From Nemertoderma westbladi (Eukaryota; Animalia; Xenacoelomorpha), in contig JAUCBJ010001029.1 of NCBI GenBank assembly GCA_032718475.1, forward strand, positions 6,208-70,207: a stretch of DNA of 64,000 nt, read 5' to 3'. Of the stretch, positions 39,105-64,000 are shown in pieces. Within the stretch, counting starts at the first letter, position 1; each line of letters begins with the position of its first letter. The notes beneath the pieces were generated by a model. That model was not told the origin of the DNA and did not search any database. It saw nothing but the letters and a program-made list of their open reading frames with translations. The translations under genes and the position numbers were made by a program.

Positions 39105-42100
39105 TGTGACGGGATCTACGGATCCCGGTTTATCCGTTTGGGTTTTCTGCCCACGCGTCCCCGCCGTGTGTGAAAGGTAAAAGAGTTCTGATGTCCGGTT
39201 ATATGTATAAGGTATAATAATCTGATATATATGTAATATAGTATGACACAACAGGTACCGGTAATATAGGTATGATGGCGGTAGCGGACGGTGACAGAAG
39301 TCCCCGTTCCACCCTACTGATCCGACTGAGTAAACTGAATAACTGACCGGTATGATTACTGGTAACTGGTTATATTGCACGGTGGCCTTATTGCTACTCA
39401 ATCGATGCCTTTCCCCCCTCTGATTGGTTAATACCCCTGTTGGCACCCTTTGCCCCCCTCTGAAGTGCTTCCCTTCGCCCTTGCTGTTCTCTCTCTTGTC
39501 AGGGGAGTAACCCCTGACCCTTATTGTGTGTGTCTCCTTTGGGGCCTATTGTCCCCGTTTACTGGGCTGACACGAGGTTGATTGGTAATCAACCTCGTGC
39601 TCCCAATATTGCTTTATGGCTCACTCTATGGGTTTGGGTTAGCGGAATTGGATAAGCTAACACTCCCCCCCATGCTATCTTCCCGGTGAGAAGATAGCAT
39701 CCAACTCAAGTGCGCTACAATTCCGCTGGATCCCGATCTAGCATCGGGTGTGGGGTGGGTATATTTTTTCGGAGTCGGCTTTCCAGGCCGCTCCCTATGG
39801 GTATGATGTCACTACCCTCTGGCGTCTCGTGTCGGGCCGATCGTGCGCTTCTCTCACACAATTTTTGTTTCCCCAACACTCTCACCACTCTACTCCAACT
39901 CTCTAACTCAACTCGCTCTCTCCCCACTCTTACACTCTCCCCACACCTGAATCGCACTCTAACTTCTCGCCAACAGCTCTTCTCACTATCTCCTTTCTAC
40001 TCTCTGCCACTCCCTAAGGCCCTAATCTCTAATGCTACCCCTGTGCTATCATACTATCTACCTACTGCTTACTAACTCTAACTATCTAACTAACTCTGCT
40101 AACTACTAACTCTTACTACTCCTAGCTCTAACTGAGAGCCTCTAACTTTCTACTGACTCTAACTCTCTACTAAGTCTAACTAACTCCTACTAGCTCTCTA
40201 CTTCTACTAACTCTACTTGACTCCTCTGAGTCTACCAACTCTGCTAACTAGCTCTACTAACTCTACTCCACTAGCTCTGTTAACTCTACTCCACTAGCTC
40301 TGCTAACTCTACTAACTAGCTCTACCAACTCTACTCCACTCTTCTAACTACGTGGCGCTTGCGGTGCCCACAACCACTCTACTATATGGCACCCTATGTG
40401 CCCTCTCTGCTCTACTCTACTACCTGGCACCCTATGTGCCCTCTCTACTACACTACTACCTCTCTAACTCTACTACCTGGCACCCTATGTGCCCTCTCTA
40501 CTACACTACTACCTCTCTAACTCTACTACCTGGCACCCTATGTGCCCGTCTCTACTATTCTACTCTATCTCTAACTCTACTACTTGGCACCCTATGTGCC
40601 CTCCCTACTACTCTACTCTATCTCTAACTTACTACCTGGCACCCTATGTGCCCGTCTCTACTCTTCTACATCCCCTTTACGTCTCATCGCCTACACGTGA
40701 CGCTCTGAGTGCCGGCAGAGTGGGTACGTTAATTATGTGAACTACTACTGACTCTACTAACTCTACTAACTCTCTTCTAACTCTACTAACTCTTTTTTGT
40801 GCCCGGCACCTCTTGTGCACGGCACCTTCTAACTCTACTAACTCTCTACGTGGCGCTAACGGTGCCCACAACCACAACCGGTACTACGTACCCTCTTACT
40901 AACTCTACCTCTATCTACGTGGCGCTAACGGTGCCCACAACCACAACCGGTACTACTACGTACCCTCTTACTAACCTCTAACTCCCACTAACTCTAATTA
41001 ACATACCCTGCTCTTACATCACACACATCATCACGCCCGTGCCCCACTAAGTTCAGCGCATTCCCTACTAACTCTAACTACGTGGCGCTTACGGTGCCCA
41101 CAACCCTCTACTGCTACTACTTTCTATGTGGCGCTTACGGTGCCCACAACCATTCTACTACTAACTCTACTCTGCTAACTCTCTACTAACGGTACTACGT
41201 ACCCTCTAACTCTTACTCTAACTAGCGGTACTACGTACCCTCTCACTACTCCAACTCCACTAATTGACGGTACTACGTACCCTTTAACTAACTAACTAAC
41301 TAACTAACTCTTACTACCTAACTTCTACCTACTCTATTATTTAATTATTTTCTTATTCTAATTAAATAATTATTTTATATTTTGTGCGTGGGAAGGGCGT
41401 CTCGCCCTCATTCCCACCCCCCTCAGTCCAAAACTTTGGACGACTAAAAACTCTCACGTGCCCCTTCTTCCGGTAGGCACTCTCCTGCTGCCCTCCTATA
41501 CGTCCTCTAACTCTTCGCCACACTCTCTTCGGTGCTACCTTTGCTGGCCTCCCCCTTCGTATGTGCGCTGGCATTAAGGCCCTCGACGACCCCCGCTCGT
41601 CCCTCGGTATACGCGGTGTCTGCCCGTGCAATGCCCCCTCGCACTGTGTCAGCCGTGCGTGTGTATGCAACACGCCTCCTTCTACTTTCCCGACTCCCTT
41701 ATGTTTGCTAATGGGCTTCTCTGCCCCTGGTTTAGTCCTTTCATATCCTTTCCCTTTCCAACACTCTCCGGATCTGTGTCCTTTTACCACACATCGATGA
41801 CATAGTCCGTTTGCGTCTGTGTAGGCTACACGATCTCGTTTGGGCAACGCTTGCCAGTACTTGCAACTCCTGGTCTTATGGGTTCCGTCCCGATGTAATT
41901 GACATTGGAATCCTGGGTTATAGCGTTTCCTGTATAGTCCTTCACGTATCGCGCTTAGGTTTATATGTACCGATTTAATGTTTTGGTTGTCTAGACTCGG
42001 CCTACTGGGTATATTGGGATTGTTTTTATTTACGGTGTTATTTTCTTTCTGTCCCTGCCACGGTGTGGCCCTGCTACCAGCTAATTGTGGACTAGCAGTC

Positions 42101-42532
42101 CCCTGTACGGCCGCGTGTGGTATTGACTGTCCGCACGACCTGCTCTCGTCCAGGGAGTTCGATGTTCTTGCTCCTATCGGGGTACATTGTCGATATTGTG
42201 ATGGGGGAATGTCACCCTGTCCCCTCCCAGCCGGTATGTTTGGTACTGGGGTTGATGTTAATATATTGGGGCCCATACGTCTATCTCCAATAACTCCCCC
42301 CTCCCCTGGATATATGTTATGTCCCTGTGTATTATTATAGTCATGCTGCTGTACCGATATAGGCCTACCTACCTCTCGCCTACCTACCGGTATGTACTCC
42401 GCGACTTCCGGGTTTAATTCCGTCGTTCGCGCTACCCCATCGCCTACTCTATCTCTCCCAGCATGGCCTATAATAGTATGTGCAGTAAGGCCTACAGTAT
42501 GTCCTTCAGTCTGCATGTGCCCTTCCGAACCT
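39105..42532 (-). mobile_element. Truncated LTR-retrotransposon-like insertion with a gag-like ORF and no pol
   Basis: Begins TGTGAC at the satellite junction; ORF 41362..42516 has tandem zinc-knuckle-like motifs; hairpin-rich non-coding part; no paired LTR found. Confidence 0.55.
41362..42516 (-). CDS. gag-like protein fragment (BEL/Pao-like knuckle spacing)
   Basis: CQLHRDGTHKTRSC...RV....GLCHRCVVKGHRSGEC resembles the first two BEL gag knuckles; the N-terminus abuts the satellite. Confidence 0.55.
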   Translation of the reverse strand: MQTEGHTVGLTAHTIIGHAGRDRVGDGVARTTELNPEVAEYIPVGRREVGRPISVQQHDYNNTQGHNIYPGEGGVIGDRRMGPNILTSTPVPNIPAGRGQGDIPPSQYRQCTPIGARTSNSLDESRSCGQSIPHAAVQGTASPQLAGSRATPWQGQKENNTVNKNNPNIPSRPSLDNQNIKSVHINLSAIREGLYRKRYNPGFQCQLHRDGTHKTRSCKYWQALPKRDRVAYTDANGLCHRCVVKGHRSGECWKGKGYERTKPGAEKPISKHKGVGKVEGGVLHTHARLTQCEGALHGQTPRIPRDERGSSRALMPAHIRRGRPAKVAPKRVWRRVRGRIGGQQESAYRKKGHVRVFSRPKFWTEGGGNEGETPFPRTKYKIII

Positions 42533-44201
42533 TATCCTTAGTATCCTTACTATGTATCCTTACTCTATGTAAGTATCCTTACTATGTATCCTTACTCTAT
42601 TTAAGTATCCTTACTATGTATCCTTACTCTATTTAAGTATCCTTACTATGTATCCTTATTCCTTACTCTATGTAAGTATCCTTACTATGTATCCTTACTA
42701 TGTATCCTTACTCTATGTAAGTATCCTTACTATGTATCCTTATTCTATGTAAGTATCCTTACTATGTATACTTACTATGTATCCTTCCTCTATGTAAGTA
42801 TCCTTACTATGTATCCTTACTATGTATCCTTACTTTATGTAAGTATCCTTACTCTATGTAAGTATCCTTACTATGTATCCTTACTATGTATCCTTACTAT
42901 GTATCCTTACTATGTATCCTTACTATGTATCCTTACTCTATGTAAGTATCCTTACTATGTATCCTTACTCTATGTAAGTATCTTTACTATGTATCCTTAC
43001 TCTGTGTAAGTATCCTTACTATGTATCCTTACTCTATGTAAGTATCTTTACTATGTATCCTTACTCTGTGTAAGTATCCTTACTATGTATCCTTGCTATG
43101 TATCCTTACTATGTATCCTTACTATGTATCCTTACTATGTATCCTTACTATGTATCCTTACTCTATGTAAGTATCCTTACTATGTATCCTTACTATGTAT
43201 CCTTACTATGTATCCTTACTCTATTTAAGTATCCTTACTATGTATCCTTACTCTATGTAAGTATCCTTACTATGTATCCTTACTCTATGTAAGTATCCTT
43301 ACTATGTATCCTTACTATGTATCCTTACTCTATGTAAGTATCCTTACTATGTACCCTTACTCTATGTAAGTATCCTTACTATGTATCCTTACTCTATGTA
43401 AGTATCCTTACTATGTATCCTTACTATGTATCCTTACTATGTATCCTTACTATGTATCCTTACTATGTATCCTTACTATGTATCCTTACTCTATGTAAGT
43501 ATCCTTACTATGTATCCTTACTCTATGTAAGTATCCTTACTATGTATCCTTACTCTATTTAAGTATCCTTACTCTATGTGTATCCTTACTATGTATCCTT
43601 ACTCTATGTAAGTATCCTTACTATGTATCCTTACTCTATGTAAGTATCCTTACTATGTATCCTTACTATGTATCCTTACTCTATGTAAGTATCCTTACTA
43701 TGTATCCTTACTATGTATCCTTACTATGTATCCTTACTCTATGTAAGTATCCTTACTATGTATCCTTACTCTATGTAAGTATCCTTACTATGTATCCTTA
43801 CACTGTAAGTATCCTTACTATGTATTCTTACTATGTATCCTTACTATGTATCCTTACTATGTATCCTTACTATGTATCCTTACTATGTATCCTTACTATG
43901 TATCCTTACTCTATGTAAGTATCCTTACTATGTATCCTTACTCTATGTAAGTATCCTTACTATGTATCCTTACTCTATGTAAGTATCCTTACTATGTATC
44001 CTTACTCTATGTAAGTATCCTTACTATGTATCCTTACTCTATGTAAGTATCCTTACTATGTATTCTTACTATGTGTCCTTACTCTATGTAAGTATCCTTA
44101 CTATGTATCCTTACTCTATGTAAGTATCCTTACTATGTATCCTTACTCTATGTAAGTATCCTTACTATGTATCCTTACTCTATGTAAGTATCCTTACTAT
44201 G
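42533..44201. repeat. 13/19-bp satellite, block 2
   Basis: Same units as block 1. Confidence 0.97.
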
Positions 44202-45808
44202 TGTTCGCGGTATTTCAACTTTCCATAACACGAGTTGAATATTTTTGTATTTATTTAAAATTGATTATTCCGATATTACTACTGGGTGCGGGATCATGGG
44301 TTTTGGGCACGTTCAATAAACTGGGGGCGATTTATGGGCGAACTTTGGGGCAACTTACAGGGTACGGGAATAATTTCATAGTTATAAGGGCCAGGGGGGA
44401 TGGAAAATGCAAGCAGTATTCAGGTTAGCCTGAGTACTATTAGGCCCTGGCCAACTTCCTGCTGCCTGTAGGGGTGGATTTGGTAATGCGCCAGGCCTAA
44501 AGGACAAGGACTGCCCTTAGCGGTCCCTGGCCAACGGCAGCTACTACGAGACTGAAAAGAACTCGGAACGCTGACTGCTTGTGTCAGGGATTTGCGACGG
44601 GCACCGACGGCCCCTTAGTAGCCAAGCCGTTCTGGTTCTCGATGATCGAACCCCGGGGTTCGTGAGGGGTGGAGCGGACACGCGAACAGGTGGCCAACTA
44701 ACGACTGCCCCCTGACCTAAGCCGTACTGGTTCTCGATGACCGATCCCTTCGGGGTTCGTGAGGGGTGGGACGGACATGCGAAAGGGCTGGCCACAGGAC
44801 TGGTTTGACAAGGACTGCCCTTAGCGGTCTCGGGTCAACGGCAGCTACTACGAGCCTGAAAAGAACTCGGAACGCTGACTGCTTGACTGGGATTTGCGAC
44901 GGGAACCGACGACAGACCCCTTAGCCAAGCCGTTCTGGTTCTCGATGATCGTTCCCTTCGGGGTTCGTGAGGGGTGGAACGGACACGCGATGGGGTCGAA
45001 AGACAAAGGACTAGACTCGACTAGACTCTACTGGCCTACCGACTGTTCGGAGCAGTTTCTCGGCTGCCGAAGCGACTACGAGCCTGAAACGGACTCGGAA
45101 AGCCTAGGTGGTTGGGTTTCTGTGATGAACTGACGGACCCCTAGCCAAGCCGTTCTGGTTCTCGATGATCGAACCCTTCGGGGTTCGTGAGGGGTGGAAC
45201 GGACACGCGAACGGGTCCACCGACACGACAGACTCCTAGCCAAGCCGTACTGGTTCTCGATGACCGAACCCTTCGGGGTTCGAGAGGGGTGGTACGGATA
45301 CGCGACAGAGTCTACCGACTGGACCGACCCTTAGCCAAGCCGTGCTGGTTCTCGATGATCGTTCCCTTCGGGGTTCGTGAGGGGTGGAACGGACACGCGA
45401 CAGGGTCGACCGACACCGACACTACGGCACTAGGACTAGGACCGAGGGAAAATCTGGGGAACATTAGGTAGGCTAAAATTCTGAGCGAACAGCGGGTTAT
45501 TAAATAATATACCGTAGGGATTTATATTATCGTGTATACTTATTGTGAATATTTGGTGTATATTGATTTGGGGAAGCCCAAAATTATTCTTAATCAAGGT
45601 TCAATATTGTTGAACAAGGTTCAACAGAGTTCAGTTACATTAAAGAGTATATCCAACTAATGCAGCTTTTCTCAACCGCAAACTTGCATCTTAGAAAATA
45701 TTCCCTCCCCACAATCAATATCCGGTGACTGGCCGGGGCTCGGTGGTCTGTTAAGTCACGTCTCCAGCATCGGCGTTTTTCCCCCCTGGTGTAGGAATAA
45801 CGGCAACA
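44202..45808 (+). repeat. 5' LTR
   Basis: TGTTCGCGG...GGCAACA; direct repeat of 56759-58365. Confidence 0.97.
44610..45410 (+). ncRNA. Array of six about 90-nt kink-turn/UUCG stem-loop modules in the 5' LTR (putative cis-acting RNA)
   Basis: Cores start at 44621, 44716, 44924, 45144, 45239 and 45334, with compensatory changes in the stems. Confidence 0.7.
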
Positions 45809-46020
45809 AAATTAAGAATAATTATCGTGGTCAACTTCAACTGGTGGAAGTTGAGAATCCTTCAATACTCTTCAAAAACTCTCTACGTGCTTGCCAGCAC
45901 CCACTACGAGGAAACTCTGGTATTTGAGTTGAGACAAAGTCGTGGTTTAATTAATCAGCAAACTCGATCTAACCAACTCGTAGTCGGCAGATCACATATT
46001 TGGAGAGTTGTTAACAGGGA

Positions 46021-46212
46021 ATGGAAGTATCGATCACACCCATTGATATAATTCAAGTTGAGCCAGGAATCTGGCACGTCGAAGTTGAGGTACAAGGAAC
46101 GAACGTCGGACGATTCAGGATTACTGTTCGGGTGGTTCAAGCTGAGTACAATACCTACGAGGAACTGTTTTACGACATCGCGTATCTCGCCATCGACGAG
46201 GCGTTACAATGA
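46021..46212 (+). CDS. 63-aa upstream ORF overlapping the gag-pol start (ATGA)
   Basis: ATG at 46021; its TGA overlaps the gag ATG at 46209; protein-like composition. Confidence 0.4.
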   Translation: MEVSITPIDIIQVEPGIWHVEVEVQGTNVGRFRITVRVVQAEYNTYEELFYDIAYLAIDEALQ

Positions 46213-49200
46213 CAACAAATAACGTATCCGATACCGACGAGATGGATCACAACACAGACTCGGAAGCCGACGAGGTACCAAACGTCAAAAACATGACCCG
46301 TCGGTTAGGGGCTCTTAAAGGCGGAGTAACCCGAGCGTATCAACGGATGGAGAAACAACTCAAGGGAGTCAAAACCCCCCTCAATGAGGTACAAACTCAG
46401 CTTCAAAGTATCCGAAATATCCTACAGCGGTACGAAAGAATGATACAGGCGTACCAAGAGCTCGTTCCCCCCACCGATCTGGAAAACTACCCCAAGCTGG
46501 AAGAACACGTTGTACATCTAGATGGGTTCCGCAAACAACACCGGAGGACCCTCAGCCTTGTGAGAGGCTATGAGGAACAGTATTACAAGAGGGCTGAAAG
46601 AACAGACGCGGAATCAGTACGATCCTCCAGCATCAGGACAGGAGTACATCGCAAGAGAATGGGGTCCACCAGAAATCAGCACTCCAGCGCTAGGAGCGAG
46701 ATATCCGGCTCAGCGCGCAGTTCTCAAGGGGCGCCGCCACTCCGAGACCAACTGCGAGAGCGGAAGGCATTAGCCCTCAAAGCTCGGATGGAAGATGAGT
46801 ATATTCAACTGCAAGCCGAGCAAGATGTATTAGCTGCAGAAACCCAAAGGCGAGAGGCCGAACAAGCGGCCGAACGGCAGGCCGAACAACGTGAACAGGA
46901 AGCCGAACAACGCAGGCGAGAGGCCGAACAACGCAAACACGAGGACGAACGACAGGCCGAACAGCGCAAACACGAGGCCGAACAACGCAAACAGGAGGCC
47001 GAACAACGCGGACGAGAGGCCGAACGGGAGATCGAACAACGTAAATGGGAAGCAGAAATGCGTAAACAACACGCCGAGGCCCAAGCAATTCTCATCCACA
47101 AAAAGAACGCGGATATTGCAAAACTCGCGGAATACGAAGCCGCACTTATAGAACGAGATATTCAACTCTACGAGGACTGGGAGAGGGATATAGATCAGGA
47201 ATATGAACCAATCCCGGTACCGGAATTAGAAAAGTCATTTATACCGACAGCGGCGAAACTTCCGAAACCCGAAATCCCGCCTACCAAACAGTCTACGCTA
47301 TCGGCACAAGCACCGGTGTTCCATCCACCACCGGCTACGTTAAAGAATGAGGAACCCTATTTCCCATCCAACACCACGACAGCGAGTGTACCCAAGTACG
47401 AGCCTGAAAAGGACTCGGAACGGGACGCCACTCCCCGATCAAACAACCCATTTACATCAACACCACTAACTCGCAGCCGCGTCATTATTAAAACTCCGCC
47501 TATCATTGATCCATCAAGTATGGGAGTGAGTGCCAATAACTATAACCCTCCGAGTCACTCCAGTTCAGACGATGTCAGCATCATCCGGGCGTTGGAGAAC
47601 CGCCTTGCCATGCCGAAGATGGAGATTCGCACCTTCGAAGGAGATCCCGTCGATTACCTCAGATTCAAGAAACGGTTCTTTGCGCAGATTGGATCAACGG
47701 ACATAGCCGACGCACAGAAATTGGTATATTTATCGCAATACCTGGGTGACAAACCCCGCAGAATTGTTGCATGTTTTGAAGGAGGTTCTCATGAGGCATA
47801 CTATGACGCATGGAAAACTCTAGACAAAAGATACGGAAATACCGGAACTATAATTAATAAAACTCTAGAGAGACTGATACAGGATGCGGGATCACTAGGG
47901 GACCCACAGAACATACAGGAATTCTCCGACTCTATGAAAGATGCCTATTATACTCTGAAACCCTTAAATAAGGAGGACCAGGTGAACAACATTCTAAACC
48001 TCCGACAGATCGCCCGGAAGTTCCCCGGATGGCTACAAAGTAAGTGGGCTTATAAATGTGTAGATCTCTGGCGCAGACATCCAGATCGAGATCCTAGCTT
48101 CCTTGAAATGTCGGCATTCCTGGATGATATCTCCGAAGCCATGAATGACTCGATGTTTTCAAAACAAAGTCTCGCAAAGTTGGACGGAATAGAGAGCAAC
48201 TCTAGGAGTAAGATAACCCCTCCGAAACCGAGATTCCGCCCCCCACCGGTAAGTACGATGGCCATTACCATGGCCGAGGATTCCGACGACGAAGACTACG
48301 AGGAACCGACATCCGCTGAGGAATGGGCATGTTATCTCGCGAGTTGGGCACCCGAAAGGGAAGGCATCACAAATTCCCTGCTCTGTCTCTTCTGTGGGGA
48401 GAAACATAAAGTGGAATTCTGCAGGAAGTTTCAGTTCGCCGAACTCGTCCCACGTTTCGAGGCGATAATGAAACACCGAGGATGCTTCCGGTGTCTTGGA
48501 ACAGGTCACTACGTTCGGGATTGCGACCAAAGGTCGTGCTGTGCTGTCTGTAACGACCAATGCCATCACACGCTCCTCCACATCCCCGCGAACTTCGACT
48601 TTACTACCCTCCCCTTTCGGATCGAAGCCAGGCGAAGAGGAGAAACAAACCACGTCTTCAAAGGAACCCGGACAACCCAACGGAGAGAAACCAACCCGTT
48701 TAAAATCTCCACCGATACACCACAAGTAACAAATATTTCGGCCACGATTAATCTTATAAATCGCCGCTACATGGTTTTCGCAAAGGTAATCCCAGTAAGG
48801 ATCCAAGGAGTCGGCAAATCTTTGACGACACTCGCATTCCTCGATAACGGGTCCGACGGAACCATCATTGACCGGGATTTTCTCGAGCAACTCGGCCTAG
48901 AATATGAGCCTTGTAAACGGCCCATACAAACCATCACCGATAACAGAGAGGTAGAGTCCGGGGAGGTGCAACTCCAGATGGAAGGAGTGATGAAGGGCTA
49001 CGAAACGGCTAAGTTAACCATAAAGAACGCCTTGGTACACACAGACCTCCGGGTGCGATTCCGACAATCAGCCGAGTACGCCCCCCTCATACAATTGGAC
49101 CGGGACGATGTAGACCTGAGGTGTCCGCAGTTGGACGTAAACCGTATCACCCTACTGATCGGACTTGATACACCGGAACTACAAATCCCCACCGGAGATA

Positions 49201-51695
49201 TCGCCCGATCTATAAACCAGGATGACGGATTTTATGCTGAACGAACAATAATGGGATGGACACTCTGCGGCATTAAGGAGGAAACCACGGACACCTATAC
49301 CTACCTTCCCAAATGTCAGATTAAAGAGAATGTAACCTCCGTGGGTTACTGCTCAGCTTCGGATCTCGACGAGGATTTGTTTCTGGAAACCGAGAAAACC
49401 CAACGAGAGATGACAAAATATTTTAATTTGGAGACCCAGGAGTTCGCGGAAAAGGACGAAAATCCATCCGAAGAGGACCAATATTGTATGGACGTTCTCG
49501 ACCAGGCCACGTTTAAAGACGGACACTGGAGTTCACCTATGTTATGGAAGGACCCAAACAAACCAATGGCAAACAACGCCAGCATGGCACTTAGGCGACT
49601 TAAAGGGATTCTACGCCGGTTGAATGACCAACCCGAGATAAAGGAGAAGTATAACACCGTAATCCAAGGATATCTCGATGATGGATTAGCAGAAATGGTA
49701 CCACGGAACGAACTGCAAGGTGGTAAAAGAACATATTATCTCCCGACCCACTATGTAGTAGAAGCCCGCAAAGGTGGGAAAATCCGAGTGGTAAATGATG
49801 CTGCCGCTATATACCAGGGCGAATCCCTAAACAGTCAACTTTATACGGGACCCAACATATATAGCACACTCATCGGCGTATTGATCAGGTTCAGGGAAAA
49901 CCGGGTAGCATTCACCTGTGACATCAAGGCCATGTTTCATCAAGTTCGTACATTACCAAGAGACTCGGACTGTCTACGTATCCTATGGACGGATAAAACG
50001 CTCACTCAACAGGAGATTAGCCAACTCACGATAAAGGACGTAGACATAATGCGTATGGTCGTCAGGATCTTCGGCGCTAAGGACTCGCCGGTAGCATGCA
50101 GTGACATGCTAAAGAGGACGGCAACCATGTGCGAAAACGAGTTCCCTCCAACCGTCATAGAAACCATTCGACGATGCTTCTACGCGGACGACGGATGCGC
50201 TGGCGCGGATAATGTAGATGAGGCGTATCAGCTAGCAATGGGGATGGTAGAATGTCTAAAGAAAGGAGGGTTCCCACTCGTGAAGTTCAGATCCCACGAC
50301 AAAACACTTATGGAGAAGTTTCCGGAGGACATCCGGCTGGAAAATAACAAGATGTATTCGGAGGATGTGGAACATCGTGTACTCGGGATTGAATGGGACA
50401 TAGAATCAGATGAATTCATCTTCAAATATAAACCCCTACCCAAGCCTATGACAAAAAGGGGATGTTTGTCGATAAAAAGTGCAATCTTCGACCCACTAAA
50501 TTTCATATCTCCAGTAACCTTGGCCGGAATGAACCTGATTAAGGAAATGTGGATAGAAGGACTGGGATGGGACGAAGAGCTTCCCCCATACCTTAGCGTC
50601 AAATGGAGAAAATGGACGGAGCAACTCGAACATCTACATCTTATGCGGATACCTAGACCGTTCTTCCTCGATAAACTGCCCACCGATATCTTCCAGCTCC
50701 ACACCTTTTCGGATGCTTCAAATACCGGAATCGGCGTAGTAACCTTCTTACGGAGACTAAGTAGCGATGGAAACGGCGATACAAGCTTCTTATTCTCCAA
50801 AGCAAAGACGGTATCCGGGGAATTCGTAGCAACGATTCCGAGACTCGAGCTACAAGCTGCAGTTTGGGCAGTAAGACAGAATCGCATGGCCATGCGGAAC
50901 CTACGGATCCCCATAGAATCTCAACACTTCTGGGTAGATTCGAGTATAGTTCTCTATTATCTCCACTCTCCATCACGGCGTCACACCACGTTTGTTGCAA
51001 ACCGAGCCACAGAGATTAAACAGTGTACCGGCCGAGAACAGTGGCATCACGTAAACGGGAAGGAAAACCCAGCGGACTTATCAAGCCAAGGCGCCACCCC
51101 AAAACAACTCGGTAAAAGTAAACTCTGGCTTACAGGCCCGGAATTCCTACGGCAGCCACAGTTAACATGGAGTACCCGATTCGACCCCGAACTCGATAGC
51201 GGAAAATACTCCGAGGACGATAAAGAGATTCGTAAAATCCATCGAAGCAACGCGGTGGAAATTTATAGTTGCCTGACTGAGCCTGCAAAGGACTCGGGCA
51301 GGCACTATAATGTCGCGACGATCACTCAACTAGCGACGTCTTTACATCGGTTGATCGAGCGAACTTCATCCATGAGACGGCTCGTCCACCACGTTATAAC
51401 CCTTCGCAACTTCCTACGGTGGAAAAACAACAAACCGATAGTTCAACGGAATATACAAGAACTCATTATCGCGGAGAAGTGTATTGTTAGATATGTCCAG
51501 AAAGAAAGTTTCCCCGATGAATGGGAACAACTTAGTGCGGGCAAAACGTTGAAACCGGACAGCCCAGTCTACCAACTAAGACCAATGATGGGAGAGGACG
51601 GACTGATCCGACTGAATACCCGGATGGCAAACGCCCCGGTCGAATATGAGGTTAAATACCCGGCGCTTCTGCCCGCTTCTAGCTTCTTCTTCTAG
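46209..51695 (+). CDS. BEL/Pao gag-pol polyprotein (gag with 3 zinc knuckles, protease, RT, RNase H), terminating before the integrase
   Basis: FEGDPVDY..F...F (DUF1759-like); CLFCGEKH, CFRCLGTGH, CAVCNDQCHHTLLH; FLDNGS protease; YYLPTH..KIRVVNDAA, DIKAMFHQV, FYADD RT; LHTFSDAS, TIPRLELQAA, WVDS, NPADLSSQG RNase H. Confidence 0.96.
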   Translation: MTTNNVSDTDEMDHNTDSEADEVPNVKNMTRRLGALKGGVTRAYQRMEKQLKGVKTPLNEVQTQLQSIRNILQRYERMIQAYQELVPPTDLENYPKLEEHVVHLDGFRKQHRRTLSLVRGYEEQYYKRAERTDAESVRSSSIRTGVHRKRMGSTRNQHSSARSEISGSARSSQGAPPLRDQLRERKALALKARMEDEYIQLQAEQDVLAAETQRREAEQAAERQAEQREQEAEQRRREAEQRKHEDERQAEQRKHEAEQRKQEAEQRGREAEREIEQRKWEAEMRKQHAEAQAILIHKKNADIAKLAEYEAALIERDIQLYEDWERDIDQEYEPIPVPELEKSFIPTAAKLPKPEIPPTKQSTLSAQAPVFHPPPATLKNEEPYFPSNTTTASVPKYEPEKDSERDATPRSNNPFTSTPLTRSRVIIKTPPIIDPSSMGVSANNYNPPSHSSSDDVSIIRALENRLAMPKMEIRTFEGDPVDYLRFKKRFFAQIGSTDIADAQKLVYLSQYLGDKPRRIVACFEGGSHEAYYDAWKTLDKRYGNTGTIINKTLERLIQDAGSLGDPQNIQEFSDSMKDAYYTLKPLNKEDQVNNILNLRQIARKFPGWLQSKWAYKCVDLWRRHPDRDPSFLEMSAFLDDISEAMNDSMFSKQSLAKLDGIESNSRSKITPPKPRFRPPPVSTMAITMAEDSDDEDYEEPTSAEEWACYLASWAPEREGITNSLLCLFCGEKHKVEFCRKFQFAELVPRFEAIMKHRGCFRCLGTGHYVRDCDQRSCCAVCNDQCHHTLLHIPANFDFTTLPFRIEARRRGETNHVFKGTRTTQRRETNPFKISTDTPQVTNISATINLINRRYMVFAKVIPVRIQGVGKSLTTLAFLDNGSDGTIIDRDFLEQLGLEYEPCKRPIQTITDNREVESGEVQLQMEGVMKGYETAKLTIKNALVHTDLRVRFRQSAEYAPLIQLDRDDVDLRCPQLDVNRITLLIGLDTPELQIPTGDIARSINQDDGFYAERTIMGWTLCGIKEETTDTYTYLPKCQIKENVTSVGYCSASDLDEDLFLETEKTQREMTKYFNLETQEFAEKDENPSEEDQYCMDVLDQATFKDGHWSSPMLWKDPNKPMANNASMALRRLKGILRRLNDQPEIKEKYNTVIQGYLDDGLAEMVPRNELQGGKRTYYLPTHYVVEARKGGKIRVVNDAAAIYQGESLNSQLYTGPNIYSTLIGVLIRFRENRVAFTCDIKAMFHQVRTLPRDSDCLRILWTDKTLTQQEISQLTIKDVDIMRMVVRIFGAKDSPVACSDMLKRTATMCENEFPPTVIETIRRCFYADDGCAGADNVDEAYQLAMGMVECLKKGGFPLVKFRSHDKTLMEKFPEDIRLENNKMYSEDVEHRVLGIEWDIESDEFIFKYKPLPKPMTKRGCLSIKSAIFDPLNFISPVTLAGMNLIKEMWIEGLGWDEELPPYLSVKWRKWTEQLEHLHLMRIPRPFFLDKLPTDIFQLHTFSDASNTGIGVVTFLRRLSSDGNGDTSFLFSKAKTVSGEFVATIPRLELQAAVWAVRQNRMAMRNLRIPIESQHFWVDSSIVLYYLHSPSRRHTTFVANRATEIKQCTGREQWHHVNGKENPADLSSQGATPKQLGKSKLWLTGPEFLRQPQLTWSTRFDPELDSGKYSEDDKEIRKIHRSNAVEIYSCLTEPAKDSGRHYNVATITQLATSLHRLIERTSSMRRLVHHVITLRNFLRWKNNKPIVQRNIQELIIAEKCIVRYVQKESFPDEWEQLSAGKTLKPDSPVYQLRPMMGEDGLIRLNTRMANAPVEYEVKYPALLPASSFFF

Positions 51696-51715
51696 CGCCA
51701 CCAATCACTCAAAAG

Positions 51716-52738
51716 ATGGCCGACTTACCAGCCACCCATCTACAAGCGGATTCCCAGCCATTCTACGTCACCGGGGTGGACTGTTTCGGACCGTTCACGG
51801 TTATTGAACGACGATCCAACATCAAATGCTGGGGAGCCATCTTCACCTGCCTGAGGTCTAGGGCAATTTACCTAGATATCGTGGTAAATCTGACACAACA
51901 CGCATTCATCAACGCTCTGCGTCGGTTCGTGGCGAACAACGGGACATGCCGCCACATGTATTCCGATAATGGTACAAACTTTGTGGGAGGAGAAAGGGAA
52001 CTCAGAGAGGCGATCGAGGGATGGTTTACCGATAACACCGCATCCCAAGTCTGGAAGGAACACCAGATACAGTGGCACTTCCAGACCCCCTTAGCCCCCC
52101 ATACGAGCGGGGTATGGGAGAAACTGATCGACCTCGTGAAACGATCCATGCGCGTCGCTCTAGGCGATACCCGGGTAACCCATGACACCCTCCGCACAAC
52201 ATTCTGCGAGATCACGGCTACCCTGAACAACCGACCTATTGTCCCTATCCGCGACGACCCCACAGACCTGGAGCCCCTCACTCCTAACCACCTACTGGGG
52301 AGACCCAAAACCCACGTTCTCCCGGAAACCATGTTCCCGGATCCCAACGAGATCGCGAAGCATACAAACTGGAAAAAGGCCCAAGCGTTGGCAGCGCATT
52401 GGTGGAGAATTTGGGCCCAGGAATATCTCATAACCCTCCGGACCAGGAGAAAATGGAACAACACCTACCGGAACGTCGCAGTTGGCGACATGGTACTAGT
52501 TAAAGAAGATCTCAAAGACCGCGTTCACTGGCCTGTGGCGCGGGTCGTGACCATACACCCAAGTAAAGACGGACTTGCGAGGACTGTGACGATACGAACG
52601 GCAAAGGGCCACTACCAACGCCCTATCCAGAAGCTGTGCCTTCTTGAAGGCAATGATAGTGGTGACTCTACGAGAGGTGATAAGATCCCTACTCAAGATC
52701 CTGCTGTGGACATTGGTGACAATTACAAACCCGTGTAA
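51716..52738 (+). CDS. BEL/Pao integrase core and C-terminus, out of frame with pol and lacking the HHCC zinc finger
   Basis: MADLP..PF..TGVDCFGPF, SDNGTNFVG, GVWEKLI, NNRPI, LTPNHLL, WPVARV..DGLARTV..RPIQKL. Confidence 0.93.
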   Translation: MADLPATHLQADSQPFYVTGVDCFGPFTVIERRSNIKCWGAIFTCLRSRAIYLDIVVNLTQHAFINALRRFVANNGTCRHMYSDNGTNFVGGERELREAIEGWFTDNTASQVWKEHQIQWHFQTPLAPHTSGVWEKLIDLVKRSMRVALGDTRVTHDTLRTTFCEITATLNNRPIVPIRDDPTDLEPLTPNHLLGRPKTHVLPETMFPDPNEIAKHTNWKKAQALAAHWWRIWAQEYLITLRTRRKWNNTYRNVAVGDMVLVKEDLKDRVHWPVARVVTIHPSKDGLARTVTIRTAKGHYQRPIQKLCLLEGNDSGDSTRGDKIPTQDPAVDIGDNYKPV

Positions 52739-53016
52739 CCCTTCTCATCATGTTGACAAACTCCTTTAAACTGTGATTTATCGACAACGAGTTATGGACC
52801 CCCCTTAAACCAACTGTAACCACGCAATGGTATTTGTGTTTCCTCGTGTGTTATGTGGAGTCCAGCGTCACCCTGCAGATGTTTCGACTGACGCAGGGTC
52901 GTTTATGTATTGTTTACCCTGATTTTGGTCATCGGGACCAACGATATTGGATTATTGGAAATGGAAAAGATTTGAAGTGGAATTCATTGTATTCATCGCA
53001 GTATGTTATGTTGTCC

Positions 53017-53427
53017 GTTGCGTGCGCAGTTCGGGGCGTAGGCGGTGTAACGAGTCCAGCTGTAGATCCCGGATTGCCGCGCAACACCCCCTCTATCCCG
53101 TTATTCTGGTGGGTCCATGGTGCATCCACGTGACTTCGACGATAGAGGGTTTTATGTTTCTCAGTCGCGTTATTCTGGTGGGACCGTTACGTGGATTTTG
53201 GGGCGTAGGCGGTGTAACGAGTCCAGCTGTAGATCCCAGAATGTTGCGTAACCCCATCCCACATGACTTCGTCGACTGAGCTTTATGTTGTTGGGAGTGT
53301 TATTCTGGTGGGTCCCTGGTGCATCCACGTGACTTCACTCCTAGCGTCTTCATTGTCCGTTACGTGCGCAGTTTGGGGCGTAGGCGGTGTAACGAGTCCA
53401 GCTGTAGATCCCAGATTGCCGCGTAAC
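53017..53427 (+). ncRNA. Triplicated structured RNA module between the integrase and the extra ORF
   Basis: Invariant core GGGGCGTAGGCGGTGTAACGAGTCCAGCTGTAGATCCC closed by covarying stems at 53017-53085, 53186-53252 and 53359-53427. Confidence 0.6.
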
Positions 53428-53990
53428 ACCCCTTCCACGACAAAGATTAACCAAAGAAAATGATTGAATATAGTTGGAAATGATGAAAAGGATCAGACAA
53501 CTCTGCTATAAACCTGAATGATGATGCGTATGCTGATGAAAATGTAATGATGCGCACCCTGGTGTTGCGCTTATAACCAATGATGATAGCCGGGGGGCTA
53601 TAAACCCAATGATGATGTGGAAATAAATAAATGTGAAATAAATGGTGGAAATAAATGTGTTGAAATATATGTGGAAATAAATGAAATGAAATGAAATAAT
53701 AATGAAATGAAAAAAGACAAAAAAAAAGGTATAAAAGAGGTCAAAGAAAAGAATTGGAAAAAAAAAGGACAAAAAAGTCATAAAAAACTGGTTGGATATT
53801 ATGTATAGCTATAGTAACTGTAAATGCTGAATGTATTAGCAATAAGATGATAGATGCCTATATAGCAATGTTATTTTATAAACTGAATTAAATAAAAACT
53901 GAATTATTCTGCTATCGCTATATGCTATAGTTTCAGACTTTCTGGACTTATAATTAACTGAACTAATTTGTAACGGATATAATCGTAAAT

Positions 53991-56591
53991 ATGGACCCAA
54001 ATCGCCAAATTATCGGCGAATTACGTAACACGGTAGATCTACTGGAATATTCGCAACCCGGATCCCCTGACTTTGATACGAATTGGAGCACCCTACTAAA
54101 TGAGAATGTGCGAGTCATTAAATTCACCGGGCGAGAGGGACCGGATTCTAAGAATCTACGAGCCCTCCGGTTAGCCGATGCTAGTACGAGACTGAAAAGA
54201 ACTCGGAACGCAAAGGCAACCGGAGGGGACGATTCGTCGTTTTGGGAAACGTTCCGACAGAGCGTCTACAGATCCCGATGTTTGATCTACGACAACGAGG
54301 GAAACGCGACGCCCACCTCGAAAGCGATTACGTTGGCGAGATGTCAAAGTTTCGTCGACGACAAGAGTACGTACCTCGCCCACTGGGGAAACCTGTCGGA
54401 GTGTACGGCGACGCTTCGAGAGGAACGCATATCGATTATCCAAAACCGCGACGACTACCAGGAAAAGTACGGGGCGAAAGAATACGGTCGATCCTTAGTC
54501 GTCGTCCTCGGAACCCTGGACGGTTTGGTACTGGTGTGCCGAATATTCCCGACACCCAGACAGGAAGTGCAGGCAGCCGGAGCGATCTGGTTGCTGCCTC
54601 CGGAAATCCAAAAGATCCTCTTCGACTTCGACGTCATTAAAATCGGGTCGGATATCAAGGCGGACGTCCGGAACGACTACGCGAATGCTCCTACAGGAAG
54701 AAACCGACGAGACGACCTCAACGCCCTTAGCCATTGCATCGACACTCAAACGCTACTAGCCTGGTTACGATTCGCCGAGTTCATGCGAGGATTCCAAGAG
54801 GTGAGACCGACGAAATCCGGGATCGGCTACCTCGCTGTGCTCAACGGCGGTATCGACTTCAAACCCCAGAAATTCCGGGACTATAATAAAATATACGGTG
54901 GATACCCGGGATTGGAAATAAAGAGCGAGCGAGAGGGTCGATGGAAGGACGTTGATCGGAAATGGACGATACACCAAAGATGGGAGAATCCCGATCGACG
55001 GAACTACGTTTACGTCGTTATGGAATGCTACACCGTCGCTAAGTTTATCTGTAAAACTCTCGATAACCTTATTACGGCGGTCCCCCTTTCCTTCGTCGAC
55101 TACGACTGGAATGAGGTTATAAACCACGCGTTTAAAGCGGTCGAGAACATTACACCGGGAGAATCGAAAACGCCCGCCGTTATCGATTCCTGGGACGAGA
55201 GCGGACCTTACGACATCCCTACGATTACCGAACTTCTCGGTGCGGAGGAGCCTCTGATCTCCTCGGAAGGGGAAGAGATATGGCTAAACGAGGGTGTTCT
55301 ACTCTCCACCCCGAAGCGACAACTCGAGCCGGAGGCCGCGTACGGACCGGCCGCCAAACGGGTTGCCTCGGCCGAACCGATGAAGAGAGCAGGCGTCTAC
55401 ACCCCACGCGGCTCCGGTAGCCCCGCGAGAGAGGTAGCCACTACAGCCGCATTGAGCGACTTTGGCGACATATGCCAACGGTTATCCCCGTATCCTTTCC
55501 CGGGCGGCGAAGATTGGTCGTCGGAGATTCCGAGTACCAGCCAACAACGGACCCGCTCAGCGATACTGGTCGAGGAAGGCCCCAGCGATGCGCCGACACC
55601 CGACGATCTCCTCGGTATCCCTCCGTCGAAAACCCCGGCACCTCTTCGCCGACCAGCGGTAGCTACTACACCCGCCGTTCCTCAGGACCCTATGCGACTA
55701 ACCCGTTGGTACGCCGAGCAAACTGAATGGATCCACCGCCAGAAACGGTCATCCGAGTTGAGACCAGCGGGACACAAAGAGGGTTATCGAAGCGAGAACA
55801 TACTACGCAAAAGCCTAGCATTCCGCGGGCTACCGACCACCGAGAATATTCCGAAGAGCGACCGACTACTCGAATACTACGCCGGCGTCCCGATTCCGAT
55901 ATTCACCGGTCGAGAGATGCAGTTGGAGGTATGCGGCGACTGCGGTTCGGAGCAGTGCCCACGCAGCAGAAGGAATCGGGTTACCGATTCTTGCCTCCAG
56001 CTCCTCGGGATACTCTATTGCCCATACTGCGCGATATCGGGCCACGACGTTTCGGTCTGTCCGATCCTTTATAACCTCTGCACCACGTGCGGTTTCCGTG
56101 GACATTCCGCTAGCCCCCGCTGCTATATTAAATGTCCAACCAAGGACGTTACCGCTATGGGCAATATGGTCATGTTTGAGACATACGCAAACAGCCATTT
56201 AAAGACCAAGTTTCGGAGAAACGCTCGGAATATCGCGCAGGAGATGGCGTGCGGATATTTCTCCTTCCCGGAACGCCTCCACACGTCGGCCTCGCTACCC
56301 TTCCATTACGTGGATCTGCTACTGAGCGCCGGATTATTCGGTCCATTCGAAGTTATTAGACGATTATATTCGTATAAAGAGGAGTTCGGTGATGGAGAAT
56401 GGTTCCTAGAGGCACGCAACTCCGAGTTGCAAAGACGAACCGACATGATACCGTTGCCTTCGAAAGGAAGAGCCGCCAGGAGACAAGCCGAAGCGTTACT
56501 CACAATGGATGTTGACGCTCCTCTACCAGCCATAGCGATCGATGAGAGTCGACGGGCGAAGAGACGAAAAGCGTACCAGAAAAAGAAGTAA
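53991..56591 (+). CDS. Extra retrotransposon ORF (866 aa): degenerate DEDDy 3'-5' exonuclease-like domain, Pro/Ser-rich linker, Cys/His clusters, basic C-terminus
   Basis: LPPEIQKILFDFDVIKIGSDIKADV, CIDTQ, SGIGYLA, W......YVYVVMECY parallel WRN/EXD-family motifs; CGDC, CPYCAISGHDVSVC, CTTCGFRGH; intact 2.6-kb ORF inside the LTRs. Confidence 0.8.
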   Translation: MDPNRQIIGELRNTVDLLEYSQPGSPDFDTNWSTLLNENVRVIKFTGREGPDSKNLRALRLADASTRLKRTRNAKATGGDDSSFWETFRQSVYRSRCLIYDNEGNATPTSKAITLARCQSFVDDKSTYLAHWGNLSECTATLREERISIIQNRDDYQEKYGAKEYGRSLVVVLGTLDGLVLVCRIFPTPRQEVQAAGAIWLLPPEIQKILFDFDVIKIGSDIKADVRNDYANAPTGRNRRDDLNALSHCIDTQTLLAWLRFAEFMRGFQEVRPTKSGIGYLAVLNGGIDFKPQKFRDYNKIYGGYPGLEIKSEREGRWKDVDRKWTIHQRWENPDRRNYVYVVMECYTVAKFICKTLDNLITAVPLSFVDYDWNEVINHAFKAVENITPGESKTPAVIDSWDESGPYDIPTITELLGAEEPLISSEGEEIWLNEGVLLSTPKRQLEPEAAYGPAAKRVASAEPMKRAGVYTPRGSGSPAREVATTAALSDFGDICQRLSPYPFPGGEDWSSEIPSTSQQRTRSAILVEEGPSDAPTPDDLLGIPPSKTPAPLRRPAVATTPAVPQDPMRLTRWYAEQTEWIHRQKRSSELRPAGHKEGYRSENILRKSLAFRGLPTTENIPKSDRLLEYYAGVPIPIFTGREMQLEVCGDCGSEQCPRSRRNRVTDSCLQLLGILYCPYCAISGHDVSVCPILYNLCTTCGFRGHSASPRCYIKCPTKDVTAMGNMVMFETYANSHLKTKFRRNARNIAQEMACGYFSFPERLHTSASLPFHYVDLLLSAGLFGPFEVIRRLYSYKEEFGDGEWFLEARNSELQRRTDMIPLPSKGRAARRQAEALLTMDVDAPLPAIAIDESRRAKRRKAYQKKK

Positions 56592-56758
56592 TGGATTGGG
56601 ATATTCCAGGAACATTTATCGAACATTTATTTTTATACAAACTCTAGGCCAAATTAATTAAAAACTATGCAATATTAAATTTGGGATTTTTTATATTGGG
56701 AATGACCTACGCAAACTCAATCGACCGACAGACTTCACGAAGGTCATTGGGGGGGGAC

Positions 56759-58365
56759 TGTTCGCGGTATTTCAACTTTCCATAACGCGAGTTGAATATT
56801 TTTGTATTTATTTAAAATTGATTATTCCGATATTACTACTGGGTGCGGGATCATGGGTTTTGGGCACGTTCAATAAACTGGGGGCGATTTATGGGCGAAC
56901 TTTGGGGCAACTTACAGGGTACGGGAATAATTTCATAGTTATAAGGGCCAGGGGGGATGGAAAATGCAAGCAGTATTCAGGTTAGCCTGAGTACTATTAG
57001 GCCCTGGCCAACTTCCTGCTGCCTGTAGGGGTGGATTTGGTAATGCGCCAGGCCTAAAGGACAAGGACTGCCCTTAGCGGTCCCTGGCCAACGGCAGCTA
57101 CTACGAGACTGAAAAGAACTCGGAACGCTGACTGCTTGTGTCAGGGATTTGCGACGGGCACCGACGGCCCCTTAGTAGCCAAGCCGTTCTGGTTCTCGAT
57201 GATCGAACCCCGGGGTTCGTGAGGGGTGGAGCGGACACGCGAACAGGTGGCCAACTAACGACTGCCCCCTGACCTAAGCCGTACTGGTTCTCGATGACCG
57301 ATCCCTTCGGGGTTCGTGAGGGGTGGGACGGACATGCGAAAGGGCTGGCCACAGGACTGGTTTGACAAGGACTGCCCTTAGCGGTCTCGGGTCAACGGCA
57401 GCTACTACGAGCCTGAAAAGAACTCGGAACGCTGACTGCTTGACTGGGATTTGCGACGGGAACCGACGACAGACCCCTTAGCCAAGCCGTTCTGGTTCTC
57501 GATGATCGTTCCCTTCGGGGTTCGTGAGGGGTGGAACGGACACGCGATGGGGTCAAAAGACAAAGGACTAGACTCGACTAGACTCTACTGGCCTACCGAC
57601 TGTTCGGAGCAGTTTCTCGGCTGCCGAAGCGACTACGAGCCTGAAACGGACTCGGAAAGCCTAGGTGGTTGGGTTTCTGTGATGAACTGACGGACCCCTA
57701 GCCAAGCCGTTCTGGTTCTCGATGATCGAACCCTTCGGGGTTCGTGAGGGGTGGAACGGACACGCGAACGGGTCCACCGACACGACAGACTCCTAGCCAA
57801 GCCGTACTGGTTCTCGATGACCGAACCCTTCGGGGTTCGAGAGGGGTGGTACGGATACGCGACAGAGTCTACCGACTGGACCGACCCTTAGCCAAGCCGT
57901 GCTGGTTCTCGATGATCGTTCCCTTCGGGGTTCATGAGGGGTGGAACGGACACGCGACAGGGTCGACCGACACCGACACTACGGCACTAGGACTAGGACC
58001 GAGGGAAAATCTGGGGAACATTAGGTAGGCTAAAATTCTGAGCGAACAGCGGGTTATTAAATAATATACCGTAGGGATTTATATTATCGTGTATACTTAT
58101 TGTGAATATTTGGTGTATATTGATTTGGGGAAGCCCAAAATTATTCTTAATCAAGGTTCAATATTGTTGAACAAGGTTCAACAGAGTTCAGTTACATTAA
58201 AGAGTATATCCAACTAATGCAGCTTTTCTCAACCGCAAACTTGCATCTTAGAAAATATTCCCTCCCCACAATCAATATCCGGTGACTGGCCGGGGCTCGG
58301 TGGTCTGTTAAGTCACGTCTCCAGCATCGGCGTTTTTCCCCCCTGGTGTAGGAATAACGGCAACA
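56759..58365 (+). repeat. 3' LTR (with a second copy of the structured RNA array, about 57167-57967)
   Basis: Direct repeat of 44202-45808, preceded by the PPT. Confidence 0.97.
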
Positions 58366-58824
58366 CTATGTATCCTTACTATGTATCCTTACTCTATGTA
58401 AGTATCCTTACTATGTATCCTTACTCTATGTAAGTATCCTTACTATGTATCCTTACTCTATGTAAGTATCCTTACTATGTATCCTTACTCTATGTAAGTA
58501 TCCTTACTATGTATCCTTACTATGTATCCTTACTATGTATCCTTACTATGTATCCTTACTCTATGTAAGTATCCTTACTATGTATCCTTACTCTATGTAA
58601 GTATCCTTACTATGTATCGTATCCTTACTCTATGTAAGTATCCTTACTATGTATCCTTACTAAGTATCCTTACTATGTATCCTTACTCTATGTAAGTATC
58701 CTTACTATGTATCCTTACTCTATTTAAGTATCCTTACTATGTATCCTTACTCTATGTAAGTATCCTTACTATGTATCGTATCCTTACTCTATGTAAGTAT
58801 CCTTACTATGTATCCTTACTCTAT
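58366..58824. repeat. 13/19-bp satellite, block 3
   Basis: Same units as block 1. Confidence 0.95.
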
Positions 58825-63584: not shown

Positions 63585-64000
63585 TACTATTACTAGGTCG
63601 AGCGAACTCGGACAGTGGAAATTAGATCCTTCCAGGCTTCCCGATTCTCCATAGTTGTCGCAATTTCATTTCTCCCAAGTTCAGTATCCCTTTCAAGTTG
63701 ATCTATATATGTTATGGCCGGTCGTCCACGACTACGCTTTCCATGAGTTGGTTGCCAGAAAAGTAGATCTGGTATGACCTCGTCTTTACTTCGCCAGCAG
63801 TGCCCACTGAATCTTAATCTGCGTTCACGGAGGGTGGTTGATACAGGTGGTATGGTACCATAGAGCTCGGCGTTCACGGAGGGTGGATGATACAGGTGGT
63901 ATGGTACCATAGAGCTCGGCGTTCACGGAGGGTGGTTGATACAGGTGGTATGGTACCATAGAGCTCGGCGTTCACGGAGGGTGGTTGATACAGGTGGTAT
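63585..64000 (-). mobile_element. RTE 3' fragment turning into a 49-bp tandem repeat (63821 to the window end)
   Basis: Homologous to 60660-60951; unit AGAGCTCGGCGTTCACGGAGGGTGGTTGATACAGGTGGTATGGTACCAT. Confidence 0.9.

Follow-up and report, generated by a model that had tools for sequence, protein, structure and literature searches.

Why would a retrotransposon carry the same small RNA hairpin in its long terminal repeats (LTRs) and inside three of its genes? The question is raised by a 64,000-nucleotide (nt) stretch of Nemertoderma westbladi DNA (assembly GCA_032718475.1, contig JAUCBJ010001029.1, positions 6,208 to 70,207 of the forward strand; here called the window), which contains a full-length BEL/Pao LTR retrotransposon at positions 44202 to 58365 (plus strand). 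An initial annotation of the window had reported a hairpin with a GNRA loop in the 5' LTR, gag, pol, and an extra open reading frame (ORF), here designated ORF3, and had proposed that it is a dispersed packaging or dimerization signal or a mimic of the rRNA sarcin-ricin loop (SRL). We conclude that this hairpin, here designated hairpin A, is real and probably selected. Whether it is a multicopy cis-acting tag on the element RNA, read by an element-encoded protein that would most likely be the ORF3 product, we regard as an evenly balanced matter, and this is the reading that we favor.

Copies and predicted fold of hairpin A

Hairpin A is one 36-base hairpin-forming motif present in nine copies, three in each LTR and one each in gag, pol, and ORF3 (Table 1). 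The six copies reported initially are all present at the places given, on the plus strand, and the peptides read from the gag and ORF3 copies (KYEPEKDSER and STRLKRTRN, respectively) are correct. The proposed consensus, A(G/C)UA...GAAC, describes most copies, but LTR copy 3 reads CCU-GAAA-CGG and ends in GAAA. A covariance model built from the six copies gave exactly nine hits in the window, with scores of 38.7 to 54.3 bits (the training copies match by construction), and the next of the 14 hits listed scored 17.8 bits. Weak hits of the model at 60915 to 60943, 63590 to 63618, and 11418 to 11446 correspond to the 3' end of a long interspersed nuclear element (LINE) and have only the CGAG/CUCG stem in common with hairpin A. 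LTR copies 1 and 2 arose by a recent tandem duplication (5' flanks, 27/30 identical), and the copies therefore represent about five independent contexts.

The coding copies were compared with chance by using a query built from the LTR copies only, together with 2,000 synonymous-codon shuffles and 2,000 codon permutations. The ORF3 copy differs from this query at 1 of 27 bases and the gag copy at 2 of 27, whereas a match with two or fewer differences was seen in 0/2000 synonymous shuffles and 0/2000 permutations; equal frequency of the motif in shuffled controls, which would have spoken against it, was thus not observed for these two copies. In sequence terms the pol copy is a weaker case (3 differences in the 19-base core): chance alone would give a match of this quality 0.185 times in a synonymous shuffle and 0.003 times in a codon permutation. 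Given the encoded protein, the probability of the codon choice is 4e-5 for the ORF3 copy, 6e-4 for the gag copy, and 6e-3 for the pol core (0.04 over 27 bases), all for sites picked after the fact. The coding copies had been described as lying in different reading frames; the phase of the ORF3 copy does differ, but no phase difference exists between the gag and pol copies, and the third phase of the motif holds a stop in 6/6 copies. When 131 proteins were searched for a peptide trace of the motif, one loose hit, at a protein N terminus, was obtained and was taken as chance.

From its base upward, hairpin A is predicted to consist of a closing stem that varies among copies, an internal loop (5x4) in which AGUA (gag and ORF3) or ACUA (LTR) faces GAA, an upper stem with the pairs C-G, G-C, A-U, and G-C, an unpaired A on the 3' strand, one further position, a C-G pair, and then U-GNAA-N. 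The bulged A, previously called constant, is indeed invariant (6/6), but the position above it is paired (C-G) in only three of the six copies and mismatched in the other three. The bulged-G (loop E) motif has a 5x4 form, and the identification of AGUA/GAA with this motif holds for the gag and ORF3 copies, on the basis of sequence and predicted flanking pairs; the LTR copies have an ACUA variant. As annotated, the AGUA/GAA flank and hence the S-turn motif are absent from the pol copy, which has only the upper part of the hairpin on a long stem.

The closing stems are different in sequence yet paired (88% of 60 cells), and their covariation score was reached by 2/500 shuffles, a shuffle score that is not a probability. 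Five of the six copies fold better than dinucleotide shuffles, with z values from -2.4 to -6.9 (LTR copy 3, -1.3). The sense strand gives the more stable fold in 14 of 15 modules, counting hairpin A together with the repeated modules B and C described below; the exception is the gag copy. A double-stranded DNA binding site was set aside as an explanation because it needs neither paired variable closing stems nor a sense-strand bias. Selection very probably acts on the fold.

At the tip, the U below GNAA is invariant (6/6) and faces A in most copies (U-A, 5/6) and C in the remaining one (U.C, 1/6). The loop is GAAA in 5/6 copies and GCAA in the pol copy (1/6), and the base after GAAA can be A, C, or G. 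These loops are not self-complementary, which speaks against a kissing-type dimerization signal. The element family is abundant and variable in the sequencing runs examined (contigs X1, X3, and X4 among them), and at position 47410 family contigs carry G at 27% (X1), 20% (X3), and all (X4) of the depth, where contig depth is no copy number and reads of other copies may fall. A T-loop is a U...A pentaloop with one to three bulged bases on the closing pair and an intercalating partner (PMC2615604, PMC6158498). Because the base after GNAA varies while the U is invariant, the hairpin A tip, judged by its sequence, fits a T-loop (with one bulged base) as well as a GNRA loop.

The initial proposal that conservation lies at the nucleotide level is borne out, in that an RNA-level constraint on the coding copies is supported. 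The pol hairpin is the top synonymous-stabilized window of 249 coding windows (z = -4.3; centered z = -5.0, 0/1000 variants), and the ORF3 hairpin is more stable than 1000/1000 synonymous variants (z = -4.0). All coding copies lie in weakly conserved protein regions: the pol copy in the most gap-rich linker among 120 relatives (identity, 0.13 to 0.16; gaps, 0.35 to 0.41), the gag copy in a region where ~19/120 relatives align, and the ORF3 copy upstream of the domain common to ORF3 relatives. An RNA signal would here be embedded in sequence that codes for protein linkers, in two different codon phases. The second-ranked window in synonymous stabilization, at 54531 to 54602 inside ORF3 (z = -2.9; fold z = -2.7), is unrelated to hairpin A.

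ORF3 as a candidate reader

ORF3 has no Pfam match, and word-indexed protein searches with ORF3 and with alignment A1 gave no matches. Eight relatives were found by exhaustive search; these are known as protein sequences without surrounding DNA and have an N-terminal domain and a Cys/His cluster in common. The model of one relative (P0121) has a mean pLDDT of 48.5, with values of about 70 to 89 over most of residues 31 to 160, and Foldseek matched it to EXD2 (E = 7e-7) and Egalitarian (E = 2.3e-6) and also to Trypanosoma brucei RNase D; the comparison with Nibbler gave a VIA Z value of 14.1 (root mean square deviation of 3.2, 192 aligned). With the ORF3 domain itself, 25/30 hits in Atlas were in PF01612 at 0.91. 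The ExoI Asp is kept by 5/6 of the relatives covering the domain, whereas ORF3 is gapped there, in an alignment of 20 to 26% identity. This gap, at the Asp position of the ExoI D-x-E motif, speaks against ORF3 as an active DEDDy exonuclease, and the predicted protein is likely inactive as an exonuclease. Since ORF3 belongs to an exonuclease-plus-CCHC family and is without the first catalytic motif, it is, by analogy, likely an RNA-binding reader. ORF3 is probably made from its own subgenomic RNA.

In the reading favored here, the folded sense RNA would have an S-turn as its internal loop, then a short stem from which an A bulges, and a tip of the GNRA or T-loop kind. Copies would have spread by template switching or duplication and been kept where the protein tolerated them. 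ORF3, with its exonuclease-like domain without the first catalytic motif and its zinc knuckles, would recognize several tags on each RNA and in this way single out the transcripts of the element for export, transport, or particle assembly. The tag inside ORF3 would also mark ORF3's own, probably subgenomic, message, for which export or transport suits better than selective packaging; a hairpin on this putative subgenomic RNA argues against a signal selective for genomic RNA. We infer every step from the fold of hairpin A to protein binding. In Egalitarian, the exonuclease-homology domain contributes to the binding of bulged stem-loops, two of which must be present on each RNA (PMC13186709). 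ORF3 is the first candidate because its likely dead exonuclease fold and zinc knuckles parallel Egalitarian; as the reader of the tag it is a tentative choice, somewhat ahead of Gag, which we consider rather doubtful in this role. Also doubtful is the broader proposal that this BEL/Pao lineage evolved its own signal-adaptor pair, in which a disarmed DEDDy ORF3, convergent on Egalitarian, would read an S-turn/T-loop hairpin in both LTRs and all three genes, its own among them, within an LTR RNA of ribozyme-style three-dimensional modules (S-turn, kink turn [k-turn], UUCG, and receptor-like loop). If true, such a pair would explain what exonuclease-type ORF3s do in retroelements.

One X4 contig differs from the element at 29/208 bases around the ORF3 copy, 21 of these being listed, and carries ORF3 with the hairpin; this agrees with the initial suggestion that ORF3 was not recently captured and is long-standing in the family. 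In this sister sequence, the A.A mismatch of the ORF3 copy has become C-G through two changes at paired sites (one amino-acid changing, and one assigned to this contig from summed depth), and a third motif change retains a G.U pair; the alignment ends too near AGUA for AGUA to be judged. The ORF3 frame contains a stop, and there are five CpG-type changes, so that the sister is taken to be a decayed copy; changes in the flank are mostly at third codon positions. Conservation at synonymous sites around the coding copies had been named as a check, and in this one contig the stem was kept but the motif had changed no less than its flank. As a single sequence, the sister supports a kept stem and an old link between ORF3 and the hairpin and counts against strict conservation of the loop.

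Several observations weigh against a tag read by ORF3. In a 420-nt context, the LTR copy 2 and gag hairpins are minor folds (pair probabilities of 0.03 and 0.15, respectively), the other four copies having values of 0.95 to 1.0, and the stability of the gag hairpin among synonymous variants gives a z of only -1.8 (50/1000). The model of ORF3 itself is poor (pLDDT, 43.8; best Foldseek E, 0.09) and points weakly to EXD2. Among the listed differences of the sister contig, 5/25 motif bases and 16/114 flanking bases are changed (Fisher p = 0.54), so that the motif sequence is not specially conserved, and the sister tip, U-GAAC-C (two changes), is neither a GNRA loop nor an ideal T-loop (C at the fifth position); some of these changes may be postinsertion. 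The near identity of the ORF3 and LTR1 copies (26/27) fits recent conversion as well as selection, and the link between ORF3 and the hairpin is one of co-occurrence and analogy only.

Alternative readings and known systems

Some of the same points would suit the possibility that only the LTR copies function and that the coding copies are neutral inserts, made and homogenized by template switching of the reverse transcriptase and tolerated in linkers. The copies are nearly identical without homologous flanks, those in coding sequence are all in unconserved linkers, the sister motif changes at the pace of its flank, and the gag hairpin is weak in context. We nevertheless consider this unlikely: the closing stem of each coding copy has its own sequence and still pairs, the first rank of the pol hairpin among the 249 windows is hard to reconcile with neutrality, and the double change in the sister restores a pair.

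A second alternative, to which we give an equally low probability, is that hairpin A tips dock, as GAAA loops or T-loops, into internal loops of module B or C and compact or multimerize the genome RNA without a dedicated protein. Along the LTR, copies of hairpin A and module B are interspersed (A B B A B A B B B), and T-loops without exception are stated to make long-range contacts or to bind ligands (PMC2615604). In module B, 92.6% of 162 cells are paired and four pairs show two-sided changes. The k-turn signature (a 3-nt bulge and then G.A and A.G pairs, as defined in PMC3985660) is present in 6/6 copies; in a strict k-turn scan, 2/6 copies per LTR passed versus a mean of 0.02 in 300 shuffles, and the C-helix of this putative k-turn is G.U rich and competes with the predicted fold. 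The number of modules B varies among family members, and variants with fewer modules keep hairpin A copy 1 plus B, as docking would suggest. One loop of module B resembles the 11-nt GAAA receptor, although its constant positions are limited to the second C-G, the A, and the AA. As such a receptor it was rejected: G-C replaces G.U in 5/6 copies and an extra A is present in all, and the G.U-to-G-C change costs +4.33 kcal/mol and changes of the top pair at least +1.73 kcal/mol (PMC2275092). The receptor is also GAAA selective, yet the pol copy has GCAA and the sister GAAC. Nothing decisive on the receptor question was contained in the consulted part of 10.1101/2022.12.15.518780.

Third, hairpin A could be read by a host protein (one acting in export, translation, or decay, or a dynein adaptor such as Egalitarian), with ORF3 unrelated to it. 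The ILS stem-loop of the I-factor retrotransposon binds host Egalitarian (Egl)-BicD (PMC13186709), the k-turn signature of module B suggests binding of the host L7Ae family (PMC3985660), and a tag in every likely transcript fits a role in export or transport. However, signals recognized by Egl require spaced U-A pairs and two helices, an upper and a lower one, of 6 bp or more each (PMC13186709), unlike hairpin A with its 4-bp plus 2- to 3-bp upper stem and fixed sequence, and the motif was present in no other sequence searched. A host reader is as improbable in our view as the two preceding alternatives.

An SRL mimic that binds eEF1A/eEF2 or decoys ribotoxins is by far the least probable reading: the gag and ORF3 copies have AGUACGAG and GGAAC in common with the SRL string (as that string was given in the initial annotation), together with the 5x4 AGUA/GAA internal loop and a tip that may be of the GNRA type, but three defining features fail, since the tips are GAAA or GCAA and none is GAGA, 6 to 7 pairs plus the bulged A and not one C-G pair separate the bulged-G motif from the tip, and C, which is lethal at the bulged-G position in rRNA (PMC2896532), occupies that position in all six LTR copies (G in 2/6 and C in 3/6 distinct copies; no motif in pol). 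Rfam gave two hits in total, at E values of 0.94 and 4.4, neither on hairpin A or modules B and C, and no rRNA match.

Repeated or coding-embedded RNA sites that are read by a virus-encoded protein include the dispersed packaging signals of single-stranded RNA viruses and the HIV Rev/RRE system. Compared with these, hairpin A occurs at only six sites per LTR-plus-body, and the sites are long, nearly identical, and marked by signatures of three-dimensional motifs. Another parallel is Egalitarian-BicD with its localization stem-loops (K10 TLS and I-factor ILS; PMC13186709), where an exonuclease-homology domain takes part in RNA binding, the stem-loops have a 3'-strand bulge, and there are several stem-loops per RNA. 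Egl, however, is a host protein that reads shape, whereas the candidate reader here is element encoded and the hairpin has a fixed sequence and shorter helices. The bdelloid LTR elements Juno and Vesta (PMC5408684) also have an exonuclease-type extra ORF after pol. Their DEDDy ORF3 is described as having intact catalytic residues (DEED), whereas ORF3 here is without ExoI, carries a CCHC cluster of the kind seen in T. brucei RNase D, and is found in a BEL/Pao element; RNA hairpins are not mentioned in the consulted part of that paper, which describes the role of these ORF3s as undetermined. Ty1 and retroviral Psi resemble hairpin A in being RNA structures that act in cis and may extend into coding sequence. 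Psi occupies one 5' region and contains palindromes (PMC8396678), whereas hairpin A is dispersed over 13 kb, also in the 3' ORF, and has a nonpalindromic loop.

Hairpin A patterns had no matches in viral contigs (0 and 0). A loose pattern matched 15 loci in metagenome contigs, none with a tblastn match to the element proteins and none with a paired tip, and two in prokaryote genomes, about the chance number by estimate; these 17 loci, picked by pattern, scored at most 25 bits with the covariance model. The module B pattern gave three loci in viral contigs (at most 13.1 bits), and pol and two ORF3 relatives as queries gave no related loci there. No description of the hairpin A motif was found in literature searches on retrotransposons with sarcin-ricin or k-turn LTR RNA (titles and beginnings of abstracts, with few subscription texts), and cis-acting RNA signals of BEL/Pao elements were not found in searches of main texts (few of them subscription texts). 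Loop E, GNRA or T-loops, k-turns, coding-embedded cis signals, and DEDDy ORF3s are already known as kinds; new, in terms of sequence, appear to be the hairpin A motif and this combination in a BEL/Pao element, which were not found in Rfam, the scanned collections, or the literature searches. Because the hairpin is short and well delimited, has natural variants, and occurs together with a candidate reader in one element, both questions, that of BEL/Pao cis signals and that of the role of the exonuclease-type ORF, can be tested in vitro with a 36-nt RNA.

The element and its surroundings

The LTR pair (TG...CA) of the retrotransposon and the 5-bp target duplication (CTATG) agree with the structure of BEL/Pao elements, as do Peptidase_A17 (E = 2e-37), DUF1759 (E = 5e-15), DUF5641 (E = 5e-30), and an integrase (rve; E = 3e-4) located after reverse transcriptase (RT)/RNase H (Pfam). 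PF05380 is present in all 120 gag-pol relatives listed, and the closest of the matches listed is at most 41% identical. The two LTRs differ by only three substitutions, without gaps, over 1,607 bp, so the insertion is young. Pol is interrupted at 51693 to 51716 by a stop and a frame change before the integrase core, and this copy is therefore broken there; the contig of another copy has extra sequence at this place.

Table 1. Features of the BEL/Pao element, in window coordinates
Feature	Position	Strand	Remarks
5' LTR	44202..45808	+	1607 bp; alignment to 3' LTR
Hairpin A, LTR copy 1	44538..44573	+	ACUA/GAA loop, A.A mismatch, UGAAAA loop
Module B, six copies (~89 nt)	44609..45410	+	k-turn-like GAU-GA/GA; five have a UUCG loop; interspersed with hairpin A
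Hairpin A, LTR copy 2	44842..44877	+	tandem duplicate of LTR copy 1
Hairpin A, LTR copy 3	45070..45105	+	U.C below GAAA
gag-pol ORF	46209..51695	+	DUF1759, protease, Peptidase_A17 (Pfam); premature stop
Hairpin A in gag	47390..47425	+	aa 396-405, upstream of DUF1759
Hairpin A apical part in pol	51269..51304	+	GCAA loop, without S-turn; linker past Peptidase_A17 match
Integrase core and DUF5641	51716..52738	+	Pfam; frame differs from upstream ORF in this copy
Module C, three copies (~83-nt hairpin)	53011..53435	+	pol-ORF3 spacer
ORF3, 866 amino acids (aa)	53991..56591	+	DEDDy-exonuclease-like domain without ExoI motif, plus CCHC zinc knuckles
Hairpin A in ORF3	54178..54213	+	aa 65-73, before exonuclease-like domain
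3' LTR	56759..58365	+	alignment to 5' LTR
Hairpin A in 3' LTR, three copies	57095-57130, 57399-57434, 57627-57662	+	missing from the initial annotation
Module B, six further copies in 3' LTR	57166-57967	+	as in 5' LTR

Module B is confined to the LTRs, and of the modules only hairpin A is dispersed. In module C, all 73 cells are paired, with three two-sided changes; an invariant core of ~36 nt (a symmetric GUA/GUA loop and a 10-nt tip) is combined with a covarying outer stem. Located upstream of ORF3, module C could act in splicing or translation of ORF3. Ribozyme readings of modules B and C (hammerhead, HDV-like, and twister), made by eye against consensus sequences and without Rfam support, were rejected.

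Candidate transcription signals in the LTR include a TATA-like box at 44382 and an initiator-like site at 44413 (44382 to 44417), upstream of all modules, and ATTAAA at 45499 and 45639, downstream of the modules; an AATAAA at 44315 precedes the TATA-like box. This arrangement, if the predicted signals are used, would imply a long R region containing the modules. A tRNA-type primer site was not seen directly after the 5' LTR (45809 to 45860). About 19 bases past the LTR, a stretch starting with TGG forms a hairpin (z = -0.24) and varies among family contigs.

The element is inserted in a satellite of 13- and 19-bp units (~24200 to 44200 and 58366 to 58826), which also hosts a second, partial retroelement-like insert (39107 to 42530) with a minus-strand zinc-knuckle ORF (41362 to 42516) and internal repeats; the hairpin A covariance model had no match in this insert. 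A 28-bp tandem array lies near positions 1170 to 3000 of the window. Downstream of the element, a LINE with an RT ORF (59573 to 60955) has a 3' end with a small UUCG stem-loop and a (TAG)n tail, and LINE fragments are located near 11400 to 12050 and 63585 to 64000. The C-terminal coding region of host Vps16 is found at 61882 to 63249 as one long GC-rich frame.

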